Made by a program: the position numbers and the translations under genes
Sequence record: OR999189.1
Length of the DNA stretch: 64,000 nucleotides
Direction: 5' to 3' (one strand)
Source: Enterobacteria phage P922
Shown here: positions 22,931 to 32,054 of the stretch, piece after piece
How positions within the stretch are numbered: position 1 is the first letter of the stretch
How the letters are laid out: the number at the start of each line of letters is the position of its first letter
The notes under the pieces: generated by a model
Database searches by the model: none
What the model saw: the letters and a program-made list of their open reading frames with translations, nothing else
What the model was told of the DNA's origin: nothing

Positions 22931-22966
22931 TACCCTATCAAAACAAATGTAAAATTGGAGAATAAA

Positions 22967-23935
22967 ATGAAAACTGTAACTATCAATAAGGGTATCTACT
23001 TCGGTAAAGAAATCTCTGGAACTTTTGAGCTCTTAGGTGAATGGTTCCCAGATAATGCTCCGGTAGATGCACAAGGAGATGGTAAAGTTTTTGTTGAAAT
23101 TGACGGTAAGCGTCGCGGTGTTTGGGTTTACAAATCAGACATTTCATATGATGGTGTAAAAGTTGAAGAAGTTAAAGAATCATATGAAGATATGAAAACC
23201 CGCATTAATAAAAGATTTAATGTTATGGGAATGATGACGAATGGTATTATTAACGGAAATATTCGTTCATTAATTATCTCTGGTGCGGCGGGTATTGGTA
23301 AAACGTATTCTTTAGATAAAGCTTTGAATAAAGCAAATGATAATGGATACATTGAATATAAAAGCATTAATGGTAAAATCTCTGGTATCGGTCTTTATGA
23401 ACAGCTTTGGAATAATCGTGAAGAGAATTCTGTCCTTTTGATTGATGATGTGGATGTTTTCTCTGATATGGACATTCTTAATCTTCTGAAAGCTGCTCTG
23501 GACACTGGAGAGACCCGTAAAGTCTGCTGGAGCACCGCATCTTCTTACTTAGAAGAAAAAGGCATTGAGCGTGAGTTTGAATTTAAAGGAACGATTGTTT
23601 TTATCACAAACGTTGACATTGACCGCGAATTAGACCGTGGTACTAAACTTGCTCCACATTTACAAGCATTAGTGTCCCGCTCGGTTTATTTGGATTTGGG
23701 TGTTCACACTAATGAAGAAATTATGGTCAGGGTTGAAGATGTTATTCTTTCAACTGACATGATGCAAAAGCGCGGTCTTTCTGATGAAGAAACTTATAAA
23801 GCATTATCATGGATGAAAGTTAATGTTAATCGTTTACGCAATGTTTCACTGCGTACTGCTCTTTATCTTGCTGACTTTATTATGACCGACAAAAACGGTT
23901 GGGAAGAAATTGCTGAGGTTACTCTTCTGAAATAA
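22967..23935 (+). CDS. AAA+-type ATPase
   Basis: Walker A SGAAGIGKT and Walker B VLLIDDVD; ATG 22967 after GGAGAATAAA. Confidence 0.65.
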   Translation: MKTVTINKGIYFGKEISGTFELLGEWFPDNAPVDAQGDGKVFVEIDGKRRGVWVYKSDISYDGVKVEEVKESYEDMKTRINKRFNVMGMMTNGIINGNIRSLIISGAAGIGKTYSLDKALNKANDNGYIEYKSINGKISGIGLYEQLWNNREENSVLLIDDVDVFSDMDILNLLKAALDTGETRKVCWSTASSYLEEKGIEREFEFKGTIVFITNVDIDRELDRGTKLAPHLQALVSRSVYLDLGVHTNEEIMVRVEDVILSTDMMQKRGLSDEETYKALSWMKVNVNRLRNVSLRTALYLADFIMTDKNGWEEIAEVTLLK

Positions 23936-25397: not shown

Positions 25398-26288
25398 ATG
25401 TCAGTAGTAATTAATAATGTCAATGCAGTAATTAAATCTTTAGTTAATAAAAAAATGATGAATGAATGGACTGTACTTCGTCGTGGAGAGCCAGATAAAT
25501 TTTTTCATAGATTTAACCCAACTTTGGATTTGAATGTTATTGATAAAGATGTTCATGCCGAAATTTTAGATAAGTTTAAAGTTGATATTGGATTTGGATT
25601 AGAAAAACATTTGCAGCGAACAAGCGGATCTGGAATGAGTTTATCTAATCGCATTATGAAAGCCCTTAATAAAATTGGAGCATTGTCTCGTATTAACGCG
25701 AGTGAAATCCTTCGTAATTATAATAAAGGATATGACCTTTATGGTCGACTGATGCCAAAATTATCATTCGATCAAATGATAGCGGATTTGTGGGAAAATC
25801 AAAGACGATTATTAGCATTAGGCGCTCGATTAGCTAAAGGTTTAGATAAACAAATGATTTTTAAGACCAATAATACAGAAGACCTTAAATGCTTTAAATT
25901 TAGTATTCGTGGAGATGATTATTACATCAGAGCTCACTCTACAGATTATGCTAATATGGGGCATCATCTCTGTTTAGCTTTTGAAGTTTTAAAAGAAGCT
26001 GGAACATTAGAATATACGTCTGGTGCTAAATGCCCTATTGGTTCAAGTTGTATTTTAATTTATCGCCCGGATGAATCCAGTTCAACTAAATTGCCTACAA
26101 AACCTGTACCGGTTCGTAGTAACGAAAAACATTCTGAACAAATTGATTATTTTAATAAGCAGATTGAAGAGCTGAATATTTCTATTCAACAATATGATGA
26201 TGAAATTTTCAGACTATCTGGATTGAGTAGTAAAGCTAAATCTGAGCGTGAAAAGTTAATTAAAATTGTTGATTTACTTAAATCTTAA
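25398..26288 (+). CDS. paralog-array protein A (globular domain + Pro-rich linker + C-terminal coiled coil)
   Basis: ATG 25398 after TGAGGAAAAT; C-terminal heptad helix ...QIEELNISIQQYDDEIFRL... Confidence 0.5.
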   Translation: MSVVINNVNAVIKSLVNKKMMNEWTVLRRGEPDKFFHRFNPTLDLNVIDKDVHAEILDKFKVDIGFGLEKHLQRTSGSGMSLSNRIMKALNKIGALSRINASEILRNYNKGYDLYGRLMPKLSFDQMIADLWENQRRLLALGARLAKGLDKQMIFKTNNTEDLKCFKFSIRGDDYYIRAHSTDYANMGHHLCLAFEVLKEAGTLEYTSGAKCPIGSSCILIYRPDESSSTKLPTKPVPVRSNEKHSEQIDYFNKQIEELNISIQQYDDEIFRLSGLSSKAKSEREKLIKIVDLLKS

Positions 26289-26296
26289 GGAACACC

Positions 26297-27325
26297 ATGA
26301 AAACTCGTTCTCAAATTGAAGATATGGTTCGTAATGCCAGTTATACTCGTGATGTTATGACATTTTTGTGTGAAAATAATTTAGACCCTGATAAAGTTAA
26401 TCGTGTTATTCATCACTTTAAGTATACGAATAGCAGTGAATGGGTGCGTAATTTTAGTAAAGCGGGATATATTACACAAATGACTGCTCGTGAGCAACTC
26501 ACCGATTTCTGTAAAACTATTGATTATAAAAATCCTTTATTTGTTCAAGGCGTTGGTCAAAGTAAGGTCGATTTATCATCTGGATTTTTCAATCCAAATC
26601 ATTATCGTATTGAATGGAGATTTATTGCTCTGTTCCGTAGACAATTAAAGCAAATTTTATCAACTGCGAGTCGATTAAAAGGTTCTGATATTAACTTAAA
26701 GAACCTGAAATTTGATGGTTATACTCTTCAGATGGAAGTAAGACCATTAAAAGAAAATAATAGAACTGCACGAATTAGCTTTAAACCTAATACAAAAAAT
26801 TCTCTTTCAATTTGCGAATGCCTTAAATCGCAGTTGACAGAAGCATTTAAGTATATGGATGTTGTTGCCGCTGTTCAGTCTAAGATTTTACCTCATTTTG
26901 AGCGAAATTGGGAACATACAACAACGTATGAACTTGATATGATCGTTTCATTTAAATACGATTTTTTGAGAAAGGACGAAGTCACGCAAGAGAAAAAGCA
27001 AGAAGTGCAAGATAACTTAAATTTAAATTTATCTAATTACTCATCAAACGATCCTAAATTTTGGATGTATAGTTCAGGTAATAAGGATGCATGGAAATTC
27101 AATAAAGTGAATTTTCTTCCTGTTGAAAATCCGAGTCTTAAACCTGTTGAAAAATGGCATGCAGATGCGATTGAGAAGTCTATCAAGGCAGTAGATGATG
27201 AACTCGTTAAAGCAACTAATGAAGTGCTAGAAGCTGAAAAGATGCTAGAAAAAGCTCAAGAAAAAGTCAAAAATCTTACGAAGCAACGTTCTAAACTGAA
27301 CAATGCACTAAATGCACTAAACTAG
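26297..27325 (+). CDS. paralog-array protein B
   Basis: 342 aa; MKTR N-terminus; C-terminal coiled coil ...EVLEAEKMLEKAQEKVKNLTKQRSKLNNALNALN. Confidence 0.55.
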   Translation: MKTRSQIEDMVRNASYTRDVMTFLCENNLDPDKVNRVIHHFKYTNSSEWVRNFSKAGYITQMTAREQLTDFCKTIDYKNPLFVQGVGQSKVDLSSGFFNPNHYRIEWRFIALFRRQLKQILSTASRLKGSDINLKNLKFDGYTLQMEVRPLKENNRTARISFKPNTKNSLSICECLKSQLTEAFKYMDVVAAVQSKILPHFERNWEHTTTYELDMIVSFKYDFLRKDEVTQEKKQEVQDNLNLNLSNYSSNDPKFWMYSSGNKDAWKFNKVNFLPVENPSLKPVEKWHADAIEKSIKAVDDELVKATNEVLEAEKMLEKAQEKVKNLTKQRSKLNNALNALN

Positions 27326-27354
27326 TTTACTTTGCCACAAGGATGTGGTATAAT
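27325..27354 (+). promoter_or_regulatory. T4-type early promoter inside the paralog array (before paralog C)
   Basis: GTTTAC ... TGTGGTATAAT. Confidence 0.6.
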
Positions 27355-27382
27355 GTTCTTACTTTCTACTGAGGAGATTAAT

Positions 27383-28384
27383 ATGACTCGTAACGAATAT
27401 ATCAAATCATTCAATAGCGTTATTGATGATAAAGTTAAACCTATGTCTAGTCAGAATAGTGTTCTTTCTATTATCAATCAATGGCTCAATAATATTGATG
27501 TAAGCATTGTTTCTTCCAACAGATTTATTCACGAAGTTCGTGAAATTTCTAGTCGTACAGATAAAGATGACATTAAGAAAACCTTTAAAGGGTCTCGTCT
27601 TCTTTCATACTTAGTCAACAGAGATATTCTTGGTAAATTTGGGAAAGAAATTAAACGAACTAAAGATGTAGTAGGATATAATTGGTTCGGTGATGTTAAT
27701 TCTTATCATCTTAATAATAAAGAAGACCCTGAGAATATTTTTACTCGTCGTTGGATTAGTAATTTCAGACTTTTCAAAGGACAAATTCTAAAATCAGCTT
27801 CTAAATTATGTTATGGCGATTATCGTCAAATTCATCCTTTGGCTTCTGATATGATTATCGTAAAAGAATATGAACTTGATAAAAATAAAGTAGCTATTTT
27901 TGTGAATTATGGATTTTTTACACCAGACGCTAACCAAAAGAATATTAATAAATTTTTCTCAATTGCTAGCACTATAACTTATCAATTAGAGGCGGCTTTG
28001 GGCTGTATGGAAACCGTAAAAAGTATTCATACTTATCCTTTTAAAAATATGTGCGGTTGGGAAGGATATAAAATTATAATTAGCCTCCGTGAAGTGAAAC
28101 GTACGTACTCACCGACTGATAAAGAAATTTACCAACAAAAATGTGATGAAATTGTGAATACTCCTAAAGAAGAAACTACCCTTGAAGAACTAATGGAATG
28201 TCTTGACGATTCGCCTGAACCGATAGAAATTCGTCCAGAAGTTATTGCACTAGAAAAAGCTTATAAAGAAGTTCTAGAAATTTCTAATAAAGCGCAGAAA
28301 GATTATGAGAAGGCTAAAAGGATTTGGGAAGAATCTGTTAATCGCCTTGATCGTTTGGAACAAGCTTTACAGTTAATTAAGTAA
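27383..28384 (+). CDS. paralog-array protein C
   Basis: ATG 27383 after GAGGAGATTAAT; C-terminal coiled coil ...KAQKDYEKAKRIWEESVNRLDRLEQALQLIK. Confidence 0.55.
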   Translation: MTRNEYIKSFNSVIDDKVKPMSSQNSVLSIINQWLNNIDVSIVSSNRFIHEVREISSRTDKDDIKKTFKGSRLLSYLVNRDILGKFGKEIKRTKDVVGYNWFGDVNSYHLNNKEDPENIFTRRWISNFRLFKGQILKSASKLCYGDYRQIHPLASDMIIVKEYELDKNKVAIFVNYGFFTPDANQKNINKFFSIASTITYQLEAALGCMETVKSIHTYPFKNMCGWEGYKIIISLREVKRTYSPTDKEIYQQKCDEIVNTPKEETTLEELMECLDDSPEPIEIRPEVIALEKAYKEVLEISNKAQKDYEKAKRIWEESVNRLDRLEQALQLIK

Positions 28385-28436
28385 TTTAAAGCCAAGGATG
28401 GCTCGGAGTATAAATCATTAACCAAGTGAGAAGAAC

Positions 28437-29363
28437 ATGAAAACTCGTAAACATTATATTGATTATTTTGACAGTCTTATTACTAAACATCGTAATTATC
28501 AGATAGGACATAGAGCAGTAATCAATAATATTCTTCGTGATTTTTTAGACTATATTGGATGGGAAAACCATATTTGTAAAGATACACAAAATGCGTATTC
28601 ACATTCTCTTGGTTCTTTGCTAGAGTGGTTCAAACGTTCCCGATTACTATCTTCTGTGATAGCTGTTAATAATGTTAAAAAATTTATGTATCCAAGCTAC
28701 ATTGAGACTAATGTATCAAATGCTAATGTTGTTACATTTAATATTATTAATGACGTGAAAAGAACTTATTTAGAAGAATGGTTTTCTAAAAATAGTAAAG
28801 AAAAATTTGCTAGTGAGTTTTCACATGAATTTAATAATAATGTGAATATGCTTTTTAAGCATTCTCGTAGACTGTTTTGTCATGGCGATGACCGTACTAT
28901 TAATGTAAATGTAAAAGATTGGGTTACGGCTAAATTTATTCCATCATCACAGAATGGACCATTTGAATTGTCAATTATTGTTTGTGCTCCGCATGAAATA
29001 TATAAAAATCTTCCATATATGAAACCGCGTGAAGCTAATAAACATAATAAAACGATTCGTTCTTTGACTTATAATCTTCGTACGTTATTGTCTAAAATGG
29101 ACGTAGTTGAATCCTTTGATGATAATACGAATTATGGTCTTTCACTGTTTGAAACTAAAGTTGTTATTAAGTTAAAGGACCCTAGTAAATTTAAACCTAC
29201 ACCAAAGCCCAATCATGGGAATGATACTATGAAAGAAGAACGCGAATATCTCAGTGCCCGTTTGATTGAAGTTGAAAAACAGATTGAAGAGCATACTAAA
29301 GTTATTAAGGCTTTAACCGCCAAAGCAAATGGTTTACGTGATGCTATTGAGGTACTGAAATGA
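28437..29363 (+). CDS. paralog-array protein D
   Basis: 308 aa; MKTR N-terminus; C-terminal coiled coil ...[33 protein letters not shown]. Confidence 0.55.
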   Translation: MKTRKHYIDYFDSLITKHRNYQIGHRAVINNILRDFLDYIGWENHICKDTQNAYSHSLGSLLEWFKRSRLLSSVIAVNNVKKFMYPSYIETNVSNANVVTFNIINDVKRTYLEEWFSKNSKEKFASEFSHEFNNNVNMLFKHSRRLFCHGDDRTINVNVKDWVTAKFIPSSQNGPFELSIIVCAPHEIYKNLPYMKPREANKHNKTIRSLTYNLRTLLSKMDVVESFDDNTNYGLSLFETKVVIKLKDPSKFKPTPKPNHGNDTMKEEREYLSARLIEVEKQIEEHTKVIKALTAKANGLRDAIEVLK

Positions 29364-29677
29364 AAAAGCGTTTATTAGAAGATATTGCAGCTTCAAGTAA
29401 TTCCAGTCTAATTAAAATTATTATGGCTGGTGAAGAAGACGATCTAGAAATGCGTGGAAAGATTCATGGTTGTGACGATCTAGACTTTAAACCTCCAGCT
29501 TGGGATGCCATTATGGTTATGGTTGAACGTCGCGAAAGGGCTTCTAAAAACGTTCCTAATTGTCCTGAATGCGGTACTGAACAGGTTCAATTAGTCCATT
29601 GGCAGACTAGTAATCTTCGTTATAAATGCCGTCATTGCAAACACCGATTTAACCGAGAAGAAAATGACAAAGCGTAA
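29360..29677 (+). CDS. small zinc-ribbon protein
   Basis: 105 aa; CPECG ... CRHCKH Cys pairs. Confidence 0.5.
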
Positions 29678-29906
29678 AGAATATATGGAGACTGCTGAAA
29701 AGGCAGTCCGTGAATTAGCAATAGCGTATTATAATGAACACGGTAAATTTCCTGATAGATACAGCGTGCTTAAATCTGCTTTAACTCGTTCATATAAAAA
29801 TATGCTATCAGAAGTAAGTGATATTATATACAAACATAAAGAACAAACAGGTCAAAGTCTTGATTACGACGAGACTTTTAAACAAGTACTAGGAATTAAG
29901 GAATAA
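29664..29906 (+). CDS. hypothetical protein
   Basis: 80 aa ORF. Confidence 0.45.
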
Positions 29907-29907
29907 T

Positions 29908-30171
29908 ATGTTTAAAGTATATGGCTATGATAGCAACATCCACAAATGTGTGTATTGCGATAATGCAAAACGTCTTTTGACTGTGAAGAAACAGCCGTTT
30001 GAATTTATCAACATTATGCCGGAAAAAGGTGTTTTTGATGACGAGAAAATTGCTGAGCTTCTGACGAAACTAAGTCGTGATACTCAAATCGGATTGACGA
30101 TGCCACAAGTATTTGCTCCTGATGGAAGTCATATTGGTGGATTTGACCAATTGCGGGAATACTTTAAATGA
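29908..30171 (+). CDS. nrdC: thioredoxin/glutaredoxin NrdC
   Basis: 87 aa; CVYC redox motif; MFKVYGYDSNIHKCVYCDNAKRLL matches recalled T4 thioredoxin. Confidence 0.9.
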   Translation: MFKVYGYDSNIHKCVYCDNAKRLLTVKKQPFEFINIMPEKGVFDDEKIAELLTKLSRDTQIGLTMPQVFAPDGSHIGGFDQLREYFK

Positions 30172-30476
30172 TAGAATTAAATGAACAGACTATTTTTCTA
30201 GGCGATGGCACAGAAGACGAACTGGAATATAAACTATATGAATATATGGTTTGGTTAGCTAAAGCAGAAGGTATAGACTTTGTTGTGGCTAACCCGTATG
30301 GCGAGAACACGGTTGTAATCGGTGGTACTGCTTATGAAGTCCAATGGCAATACGTTGGGCTTGAATCTGAAGAATTTGAAGAAGATGAGCATGGTGATTG
30401 GCATCCAGTGGGTCCTTGGTATTGGGAAAACGGTGAACCTGATTTTGAAGTGTCGAGTTGGTGGTGTGATAAATGA
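30168..30476 (+). CDS. hypothetical acidic protein
   Basis: 102 aa ORF. Confidence 0.45.
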   Translation: MIELNEQTIFLGDGTEDELEYKLYEYMVWLAKAEGIDFVVANPYGENTVVIGGTAYEVQWQYVGLESEEFEEDEHGDWHPVGPWYWENGEPDFEVSSWWCDK

Positions 30477-30793
30477 CTATTGAAAATAAATTAGATGTTG
30501 ATGCAGTTCTGAGTGAAATCATTGAAGACCATGATGCATTTTCAGAAAATTATGATTTTGATTTTTCAGACTATCTTAAACCTGTCGAAATAGAAGACTG
30601 GGTACAAGATGGCAAATGTCAATATCGGCAGTGTGTTTATTTTAGCCCAAAACATAATGTACATGTTTCCGTAAATGAATGCCGTTCAGGTTCTTACCAT
30701 TCTGACTGGTATTATGCAGTTCCGACTGTTGAATTAGTCGAGCCCCGTGAACGTGTAGTAACTCAGACAATACGAGAATGGATTACGCTATAA
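30473..30793 (+). CDS. hypothetical protein
   Basis: 106 aa ORF. Confidence 0.45.
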   Translation: MTIENKLDVDAVLSEIIEDHDAFSENYDFDFSDYLKPVEIEDWVQDGKCQYRQCVYFSPKHNVHVSVNECRSGSYHSDWYYAVPTVELVEPRERVVTQTIREWITL

Positions 30794-30916
30794 AACCTTG
30801 GTGGGCGGCTAGATGGGAAACAGTAGAGCCAGAGCCGGAAGAACCGGTTTACACTGATGAAGAAACAGTATATAATGAACCTACGATAAATGACTTAATT
30901 GATATGGAGATGGGAC

Positions 30917-31363
30917 ATGATTACAGTAGATAAGTGGTTTAGAATTAATCGTGCTGATAAAGGGCTATGTAATTATTGGCCAGAACTTAGTGCAGGTACT
31001 GTCTTTAAAGTTCGTGAACTCGCAAAAGAATGCGAAGATGATATAGAACCTGATACTGGAATTATTGAAATTGAACTTTCTGATGGAAAGATTATTAACA
31101 TCTATGATAAGCCAATTACGTATTGGTGCTTGTGGAATACTGAATCAGTAGAAAATGGCGAGATTGAAGAAGTTGTAGAACGAGTTGATCAAGCTATTCA
31201 TAAACCTAAAGCCGCTTTTCAAGGTGAACGCATTTCATATGCATTAGCTAAATTAGCTGCGCAAGAAAACAACGATGGCTATGAAGGAAATTTGATGCAA
31301 GCTGCGGCAGAATATATTGAATGGCTTGAAACTCAAATTTCTTTTTCTGACCGAGCATTTTAA
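30917..31363 (+). CDS. hypothetical protein (possibly Pin-like by position)
   Basis: ATG 30917 after GGAGATGGGAC; 148 aa. Confidence 0.4.
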   Translation: MITVDKWFRINRADKGLCNYWPELSAGTVFKVRELAKECEDDIEPDTGIIEIELSDGKIINIYDKPITYWCLWNTESVENGEIEEVVERVDQAIHKPKAAFQGERISYALAKLAAQENNDGYEGNLMQAAAEYIEWLETQISFSDRAF

Positions 31364-31540
31364 TGAAAACTGAATTGGTTTATACTGAAAAGTTAAATGG
31401 TGGTAAGGTTTGGAAACTTTTTATTAAAGGAAGTCCTACCGACTCTAATATGACCACTTGTGTAGGAACTTATTCTCGTCCTACTAAAAAGATGATTCGG
31501 CAATATAAGCGATTGCATCGAATGTTTTACAATACTTGAA
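31364..31540 (+). CDS. hypothetical small protein (below the ORF-track cutoff)
   Basis: ATG 31364 overlapping upstream stop (TAATG); 58 codons. Confidence 0.3.
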
Positions 31541-31580: not shown

Positions 31581-32054
31581 ATGTTATTGACTGGCAAATT
31601 ATATAAAGAAGAAAAACAGAAATTTTATGATGCACAAAACGGTAAATGCTTAATTTGCCAACGAGAATTAAATCCTGATGTTCAAGCTAATCACCTTGAC
31701 CATGACCATGAATTAAATGGACCGAAAGCAGGAAAGGTACGTGGATTGCTTTGTAATCTCTGCAATGCTGCAGAAGGTCAAATGAAACATAAATTTAATC
31801 GTTCTGGTTTAAAGGGACAAGGTGTTGATTATCTTGAATGGTTAGAAAATTTACTTACTTATTTAAAATCCGATTACACCCAAAATAATATTCACCCTAA
31901 CTTTGTTGGAGATAAATCAAAGGAATTTTCTCGTTTAGGAAAAGAGGAAATGATGGCTGAGATGCTTCAAAGAGGATTTGAATATAATGAATCTGACACT
32001 AAAACACAATTAATAGCTTCATTTAAGAAGCAGCTTAGAAAGAGTTTAAAATGA
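31581..32054 (+). CDS. 49: recombination endonuclease VII (gp49, Holliday junction resolvase)
   Basis: 157 aa; MLLTGKLYKEEKQKFYDAQNGKCLICQREL... matches recalled T4 endo VII. Confidence 0.95.
   Translation: MLLTGKLYKEEKQKFYDAQNGKCLICQRELNPDVQANHLDHDHELNGPKAGKVRGLLCNLCNAAEGQMKHKFNRSGLKGQGVDYLEWLENLLTYLKSDYTQNNIHPNFVGDKSKEFSRLGKEEMMAEMLQRGFEYNESDTKTQLIASFKKQLRKSLK

Follow-up and report, generated by a model that had tools for sequence, protein, structure and literature searches.

Four consecutive genes at positions 25398 to 29363 of Enterobacteria phage P922 (record OR999189.1; the 64,000 nucleotides (nt) analysed here are referred to as the window) raise the question of whether they descend from a single gene and what such an array would do for the phage. 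They cover about 4 kb, corresponding to 2.4% of the T4 genome, and are still listed as "hypothetical" or, wrongly, as "thioredoxin" in the best-studied phage. An earlier note on this DNA, made from the letters alone, had read them as a tandem array of divergent paralogs and had considered that they might be nrdC.x open reading frames (ORFs) of T4. We find that they are nrdC.6, nrdC.5, nrdC.4 and nrdC.3, that they are best placed in one superfamily found as a single copy in other T4-like phages, and that counter-defence is their most likely function.

Identity of the four genes

By sequence, the source phage of the window is a Tequatrovirus. The 4.1-kb array stretch shares 99.9% DNA identity with Escherichia phages EcNP1 and Nami and 90-98% with nearly 500 further phage records, almost all of them T4-like. 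All four ORFs are present on the + strand with the coordinates and lengths (296-342 aa) first reported for them, and each is preceded by a plausible Shine-Dalgarno sequence. Gene names in PP01 and other records identify them, 5' to 3', as early genes of the T4 type, namely nrdC.6, nrdC.5, nrdC.4 and nrdC.3, an order which matches that of T4 and KMB42, so the guess of the earlier note regarding nrdC.x was correct. Two of the proteins had been said to start with MKTR, and these are nrdC.5 and nrdC.3; nrdC.4 starts with MTR.

Full-length family matches were obtained for nrdC.6 to phrog_2257 (E 9e-152) and for nrdC.4 and nrdC.3 to phrog_1435 (E 3e-165 and 1e-100, respectively), while nrdC.5 matches PF23882 (DUF7235) over residues 1-342 with 432.6 bits against a cut-off of 30 (E 1.2e-129). 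Precomputed labels assign PF26899 to all nrdC.6 homologues and are the source of the PF26897 label on nrdC.4 homologues. Window NrdC.6 is 97.3% identical to its T4 counterpart. Each of the genes is present in 550-740 phage records. Within the 64-kb window, the superfamily profiles described below match these four ORFs only.

Relationship of the four proteins

Among the four proteins, BLASTP relates only nrdC.4 and nrdC.3 (24.5% identity over 269 aa, E 1.7e-6), a pair that PHROGs already joins in one family. Profile-profile comparison with hhalign, on family alignments to which Dhakavirus, Gaprivervirus and JK45 orthologues had been added, yielded 99% for nrdC.4-nrdC.3, while nrdC.5 reached 96-98% (E 8e-9 to 4e-12) when compared with nrdC.4 and nrdC.3 combined; in a first pass on shallow alignments, nrdC.6 showed no link to the other three. 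Searched exhaustively with HMMER and a profile merged from all four families, 1.84 billion cluster representatives contained only 29 members at E <=1e-3, so the superfamily is tiny. Intermediates between the families include P0238 and P0240, which match both the nrdC.6 and the nrdC.5 profiles, and P0242 and P0245, which match the nrdC.5, nrdC.6 and nrdC.4/3 profiles; P0234 combines an nrdC.4-like N-domain with an nrdC.5-like tail.

Intermediates were assigned individually to the group that they matched best (G6 for nrdC.6, G5 for nrdC.5 and G43 for nrdC.4/3), and the full-length comparisons then gave 97-98.5% for G6-G5, 95-98% for G6-G43 and 98-99% for G5-G43. The N-domains alone (G5N, G6N and G43N) gave 96-98% for G5N-G43N, 94-95% for G6N-G5N and 87-95% for G6N-G43N, with scores far above those of block shuffles (z = 7-16 overall and 7-10 for the links of nrdC.6), none of which reached the observed score. 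JD18 gp070, which was included in no profile, matches the hidden Markov models (HMMs) of all three groups with 36, 23 and 18 bits. These comparisons argue with high confidence for a single superfamily comprising nrdC.5, nrdC.4 and nrdC.3, and the case for nrdC.6 as a further member is good but not complete. The four divergent paralogs proposed from the sequence are thereby recovered, nrdC.6 after the inclusion of intermediates.

A MAFFT alignment of all four families displays the same order of elements, namely motif A, motif B, a beta-hairpin/helix/beta-hairpin module, a P-x-P-(V/I) linker and a terminal helix, with motifs A, B and C all collinear with the Pro linker and the terminal helix. 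The common layout of N-terminal domain, Pro-containing linker and C-terminal amphipathic helix had been noticed before, and all four linker strings given for it (PTKPVPV, PVENPSLKPVEK, SPEPIEIRPEV and KPTPKPNHG) were found. Motif A reads F-K-x-S-R-L-L-S... in nrdC.4 and G-A-L-S-R-x-N-A... in nrdC.6, and the consensus of motif B is ...L-x-x-A-S-(K/R)-L-x-x-G-D. In nrdC.6, motif B is NQRRLLALGARLAKGLDKQ, with columns that are invariant within the nrdC.6 family; its counterparts by MAFFT and hhalign are RRQLKQILSTASRLKGS (nrdC.5), FKGQILKSASKLCYGD (nrdC.4) and NMLFKHSRRLFCHGD (nrdC.3).

Only L83, A205 and P280 are nearly invariant across the four-family alignment, and no polar residue is conserved. 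The array proteins had no Pfam functional domain, NCBIfam or PDB sequence match. Weak matches to DUF4164, DUF3905, SEC10/PgrA and BrxC all concern helical regions and lie below cut-offs, and the PADLOC defence-system HMMs produced a chance-level match only (BrxC, E 0.0097, 11.9 bits, in the nrdC.4 tail). Since no polar residue is conserved and no Pfam functional, NCBIfam, PADLOC or PDB match was obtained, the proteins would seem to be binding scaffolds and not enzymes.

A usable AlphaFold2 model was obtained for nrdC.6 (predicted local distance difference test (pLDDT) 77, predicted template modelling score 0.65). Searched against BFVD with Foldseek, it matches the single-copy homologue of Enterobacter phage IME523 (E 7e-7) as well as proteins of ~300-335 aa from T4-like phages of Pectobacterium, Klebsiella, Citrobacter, Yersinia and Acinetobacter; models of T4 NrdC.3, NrdC.4 and NrdC.5 were absent from these BFVD matches, and fold searches gave no significant match among solved structures. 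A 313-aa BFVD match from fHe-Yen9-01 was considered as an nrdC.3 allele and rejected, as this phage is a Tegunavirus with one nrdC.6-like member.

The genes are long-known T4 ORFs, and neither the superfamily link, nor the shared modular architecture, nor the descent from a single copy was found in the literature searched.

Copy number among T4-like genera

Among the phages examined, one superfamily member is found in IME523 (Kanagawavirus), EI (Marfavirus), JD18 (Jiaodavirus) and fHe-Yen9-01 (Tegunavirus), positioned immediately upstream of an nrdC.2-like gene and nrdC. Three members are present in Dhakavirus, Gaprivervirus and JK45, and four in Tequatrovirus. The single-copy homologues (IME523 gp085, Klebsiella phage EI gp079, JD18 gp070 and fHe-Yen9-01 gp94) resemble the array in superfamily, size, C-terminal helix and position but are present in one copy instead of four, show 14-27% identity and are all uncharacterised. 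The four window genes are best explained as tandem duplicates of one ancestral, phage-only accessory gene of T4-like phages that would have resided upstream of nrdC.2/nrdC, and the series of 1, 3 and 4 copies over the T4-like genera would then be a clean case of tandem expansion of a counter-defence gene.

In Kanagawavirus, Marfavirus and Jiaodavirus, the family member is preceded at a short distance by a conserved ORF of ~257-262 aa (L009 4250-5020, L010 4269-5042 and L011 4932-5720). This ORF has no superfamily HMM match at E <=1e-3.

Counter-defence by nrdC.5 and its setting

An evolved clone of T4 in which a large segment was deleted lost plating on ECOR17 and on MG1655 carrying the ECOR17 dsr1 gene, and expression of T4 nrdC.5 from a plasmid enabled the deletion mutant to plate again on cells with Dsr1 of ECOR17 (Srikant, Guegler and Laub, eLife 2022; PMC9391042). 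This anti-Dsr1 phenotype was published for the T4 allele; the second window gene is its orthologue at the same position with 95.6% amino-acid identity (~4% of residues differ), and the other three are its remote paralogues. T4 NrdC.5 was treated there as a lone uncharacterised early gene, and neither that study nor the other literature found mentions the superfamily, its common architecture or a single-copy ancestor. The literature searched contained no later mechanistic work on the anti-Dsr1 effect of nrdC.5, and Dsr1 was termed "poorly characterized" as late as August 2026 (PMC13464706). The earlier note had suspected host-targeting or anti-defence effectors in the array as a whole, which is borne out for nrdC.5, the one member with a tested phenotype.

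A functional analogy, and no more than that, is offered by DSAD1 of phage SPbeta, which inhibits the SIR2 NADase DSR2 by direct binding and is thus likewise a phage protein disarming a defence-associated sirtuin. It differs in target (DSR2, not Dsr1) and in phage lineage, and for NrdC.5 direct binding is a prediction. No sequence match at E up to 1 was found between the array proteins and PDB chains, including those of DSR2-DSAD1 complexes.

The genomic setting also points to counter-defence. T4 nrdC.1 inhibits Septu (bioRxiv 10.1101/2025.11.20.689424) and T6 gp49.2 inhibits OLD (PMC13096335). As both lie nearby, the array appears to be located in an anti-defence island, and the whole nrdC.11-to-49 interval looks like one. 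The genes of T4 anti-defence islands (dmd/tifA/adfA of the "anti-TA island", nrdC.1 and gp49.2) are small-to-medium, non-essential and early, with each directed against a different host system, and the array lies directly between such genes. Whereas those inhibitors are mutually unrelated, the array consists of four adjacent tandem-duplicate paralogues of ~300-340 aa each.

The explanation that we favour, though with modest confidence, is a tandem-duplicate counter-defence array acting by direct protein binding. Each protein consists of an N-terminal helical segment (~60 aa) that varies, a conserved core, a likewise variable linker containing Pro, and a lineage-specific C-terminal amphipathic helix. 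The core is made up of motif A, motif B and the beta-hairpin/helix/beta-hairpin module, and no relative of it was detected among solved structures. NrdC.5 would neutralise the SIR2-type NADase Dsr1, as published for T4, and the products of nrdC.3, nrdC.4 and nrdC.6 may target other host immune proteins, with specificity possibly set by the N-terminal segment and the linker. The C-terminal helix could mediate homo-oligomerisation and may have diverged so that the copies avoid cross-assembly. Through their kinship with the anti-immune nrdC.5, nrdC.3, nrdC.4 and nrdC.6 become concrete, testable counter-defence candidates, a useful outcome if not a startling one. A structure of the N-domain, which had no solved relative in these searches, ideally together with Dsr1, would inform the poorly understood Dsr1 system.

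Divergence and recombination

Orthologues from different genera share 22-27% identity in nrdC.5, 31-51% in nrdC.6 and 43-52% in nrdC.4. Within Tequatrovirus, the ratio of nonsynonymous to synonymous substitution rates (dN/dS) is raised for nrdC.5, nrdC.4 and nrdC.3 (0.13-0.33) relative to nrdC.10, nrdC and endonuclease VII (0-0.05), which speaks for counter-defence, but gene-wide positive selection was not found (dN/dS <1). Tequatrovirus sequences differ mainly in their first ~60 residues and in the linker; from about aa 60 to 180, the core is almost invariant. The description of these proteins as having rapidly diverging heads therefore fits their first ~60 residues but not the central core, and gene-wide dN/dS is low for nrdC.6.

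The array is unstable in nature. Its genes are dispensable and are lost or fused in natural isolates, which likewise favours counter-defence. In the Tequatrovirus ACG-C40 (L001 6802-7213), a natural deletion begins at codon ~71 of nrdC.5, ends where the last ~69 codons of nrdC.3 start and leaves nrdC.6 alone intact, while Pinarejo (L014 4001-4141) retains only the last 47 codons of nrdC.6. Salmonella phage Manna (L013 3215-4252) contains an in-frame 345-aa chimera, nrdC.6(1-~269)-nrdC.4(251-333), joined across ~21 nt of microhomology (...YDDEI / ...CDEI); the deletion removed nrdC.5 and the greater part of nrdC.4. The alleles of nrdC.3 form two sharply separated classes (at least 90% versus about 61% identity) among Tequatroviruses that are otherwise 90-98% identical, with 139 records at 90% identity or above and 358 at 60-80%. 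The HY01 allele has a dS (synonymous divergence) of about 1.3. This pattern suggests allele replacement through recombination.

Two further proteins have unusual structures. P0056 is a hybrid ORF in which nrdC.5 (aa 146-274) is joined to an nrdC.3-type C-terminal half, and in P0058, a 378-aa nrdC.6 of Shigella phage Sf25, ~80 residues are duplicated internally. Both could be real recombinants or assembly artefacts.

More speculatively, and as an idea that we hold only tentatively, the superfamily might be a readily recombining, modular counter-defence platform in which the immune target is chosen by hypervariable N-terminal helices and a hypervariable linker, both borne by a conserved core whose fold has not been seen before. 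NrdC.5 would take Dsr1 and each paralogue another E. coli defence system, lineage-specific coiled-coil tails would prevent cross-assembly, and unequal recombination of the kind seen in the Manna chimera would make new combinations.

The C-terminal tails

Heptad character was assessed with a crude home-made a/d score and compared with 300 whole-protein shuffles. The maximum falls in the C-terminal tail in nrdC.6, nrdC.5 and nrdC.4. For nrdC.3, it lies at aa 198, and two regions, among them the tail (263-308), reach at least 0.6. The tail of nrdC.5 scores 0.9. Observed values were reached by 0/300 shuffles for both nrdC.5 and nrdC.3, by 2% for nrdC.4 and by 7%, which is marginal, for nrdC.6. The AlphaFold2 model of nrdC.5 is poor overall (pLDDT 43, from an alignment of 29 sequences that are mostly >85% identical), with the tail helix alone being confident. 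With regard to the C-terminal coiled coil of the earlier note, the helices of nrdC.5 and nrdC.6 are confidently modelled and the heptads of nrdC.5, nrdC.3 and nrdC.4 score above shuffles, but nrdC.6 is marginal and its helix is broken.

Tails are better conserved than N-domains in each lineage, with identities between genera of 61-67% versus 30-39% in nrdC.6, 28-40% versus 16-23% in nrdC.5 and 62-64% versus 41-51% in nrdC.4, and between alleles and genera of 68-75% versus 56-60% in nrdC.3. Between paralogues, end-anchored tail identity is 13-23%, with the values involving nrdC.4 being unreliable due to mis-anchoring of the window nrdC.4 tail. The four tails are alike in architecture and in a terminal L-x-x-(A/V)-(I/L/V)-x-x-L-K-like ending, with little sequence in common. 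Judged by these identities, the tails appear functionally important but lineage-specific, which argues against one common ligand and fits self-association better. A tail of this kind is more likely a self-association module that diverged between paralogues, the oligomeric state being a prediction.

Alternative explanations

Two alternatives concern the nature of the genes themselves. BLASTP finds nothing between nrdC.6, nrdC.5 and nrdC.4/3, and Pfam and PHROGs keep three separate families, as would be expected if four unrelated ORFs of similar size had gained helical tails independently and the paralogue array were an illusion. We consider this very improbable and already largely refuted by the profile-profile values of 95-99%, by N-domain scores 7-16 standard deviations above block shuffles, by motifs that are collinear across the four families, by single-copy homologues that match all three profiles and by the structural match of the nrdC.6 model to the IME523 homologue. 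Still less credible is that the four are thioredoxin-like or nucleotide-metabolism proteins, as stated in many GenBank records. The product name "thioredoxin" in these records was carried over from the locus name nrdC.x; none of the four proteins has a thioredoxin or glutaredoxin match in Pfam or NCBIfam, the real NrdC glutaredoxin is a separate 87-aa protein encoded downstream, and the nrdC.6 model resembles no solved structure significantly.

Other alternatives concern what the proteins do. The earlier note had taken the shared tail as a sign of a common partner, onto which all four proteins would dock by their C-terminal coiled coil, with the variable heads as specificities. All four do end in an amphipathic helix with a last turn of the form (K/R)-x-x-(K/R)-L-x-x-(A/V)-(I/L/V)-x-x-L-K, and the C-terminal profiles align end to end for G6C-G5C (91%) and G5C-G43C (93%). 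However, the G6C-G43C comparison is insignificant (8-12%), coiled-coil similarity is prone to compositional convergence, and the paralogue tails share so little although the tail is the best-conserved segment inside each lineage (61-75% between orthologues, 28-40% for nrdC.5). A common partner is not supported by these comparisons, and we regard it as improbable. A stronger competitor, if still rather unlikely, is that the proteins serve a different purpose in host takeover, early and non-essential, for example by modulating a host complex or metabolism. The anti-Dsr1 effect would then be indirect, for example through removal or masking of an activating signal, and the paralogues would not be dedicated inhibitors. 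A direct mechanism of nrdC.5 is a prediction, Dsr1 was still termed poorly characterized in 2026 (PMC13464706), and the strong purifying selection on nrdC.6, which is kept in most multi-copy genera, as well as the nearly invariant core in Tequatrovirus would suit such a task. It is less easily reconciled with the position of the array within a run of experimentally shown anti-defence genes, with its deletion or fusion in viable natural isolates, with a copy number that follows phage genus and therefore host group, and with the lack of conserved catalytic-type residues.

Several points weigh against the counter-defence array that we favour. Only nrdC.5 has an experimental phenotype, from one complementation experiment in which direct binding is an interpretation, and the literature searched held nothing on nrdC.3, nrdC.4 or nrdC.6, for or against an anti-defence role. 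At 0.03-0.09, the dN/dS of nrdC.6 is slow, unlike that of a typical arms-race gene. Without intermediates, the hhalign link of nrdC.6 is borderline (29-46% global, about 6% local), even though its global collinear score exceeds all 40 block-shuffled controls, and the intermediates that link it came from the merged four-family profile, which introduces some circularity. The common N-domain fold is, moreover, predicted from sequence profiles and a single model.

Features of the array and neighbouring genes

Features of the array and its surroundings are listed in Table 1.

Table 1. Coordinates of the array genes, their features and neighbouring genes in the window
Feature	Position	Strand	Remarks
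nrdC.6	25398-26288	+	296 aa; PHROG 2257, Pfam PF26899 (precomputed annotation); most conserved array member
nrdC.6 motif B	25797-25853	+	aa 134-152, NQRRLLALGARLAKGLDKQ; best-conserved core helix
nrdC.6 C-terminal helix-break-helix	26124-26285	+	aa 243-296; AlphaFold2 helices 243-272 and 278-295, pLDDT 83-89
nrdC.5	26297-27325	+	342 aa; Pfam DUF7235 (PF23882), PHROG 2351; orthologue of T4 anti-Dsr1 gene
nrdC.5 C-terminal long amphipathic helix	27143-27319	+	aa 283-341; single 59-residue AlphaFold2 helix, pLDDT 72-92
Sigma-70 / T4-early-type promoter-like site (putative)	27326-27354	+	between nrdC.5 and nrdC.4; GTTTACTTTGCCACAAGGATGTGGTATAAT
nrdC.4	27383-28384	+	333 aa; PHROG 1435, Pfam PF26897
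nrdC.4 C-terminal helix	28241-28381	+	about aa 287-333, ...WEESVNRLDRLEQALQLIK; heptad windows 287-317
nrdC.3	28437-29363	+	308 aa; PHROG 1435, as nrdC.4; two allele classes among Tequatroviruses
nrdC.3 C-terminal helix	29223-29360	+	about aa 263-308; heptad run 263-308
nrdC.10	22955-23935		326 aa; dN/dS 0.01-0.05, very strong purifying selection
nrdC.2	29360-29677		105 aa; C-terminal four-cysteine zinc-ribbon signature (CPEC...CRHC)
nrdC.1	29664-29906		orthologue of T4 Septu-inhibitor gene
nrdC	29908-30171		87-aa ORF, NrdC glutaredoxin
Endonuclease VII gene	31581-32054

An early promoter had been proposed inside the array. The site consists of TTTACT, a 17-nt spacing and an extended -10 element, TG-TATAAT, with 10/12 consensus matches; it ranks in the top three of the sigma-70 matches over 8 kb and is 99% conserved in T4, HY01 and KMB42, but the sigma-70 scan as a whole showed no enrichment over shuffles. 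The site is there, and its function as a promoter is putative.

An alternative ATG of nrdC.4 at 27353 falls within the -10 element, which speaks for the ATG at 27383, with a strong GAGGAG Shine-Dalgarno sequence 6 nt before it, as the start. In many records, nrdC.4 is annotated as 343 aa with the start at 27353, which is probably wrong.

Among the neighbours, nrdC.10 weakly resembles P-loop NTPases (nSTAND3, AAA_16, AAA_14 and AAA_22), with no match reaching its cut-off, and nrdC.2 weakly matches several zinc-ribbon families. In all genera examined, the family member is followed by a gene that takes the place of nrdC.2, with homology in some of them resting on record annotations only. The 49.x genes lie downstream of nrdC at about 30168-31540, the neighbourhood from which T6 gp49.2 comes.

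Near-identical T4-type proteins (P0053, P0192, P0198 and others) are filed under assemblies of Enterococcus faecalis, Bacillus cereus, Salmonella and E. coli, some of them on contigs of about 166-171 kb. They are probably phage contamination and not host genes.

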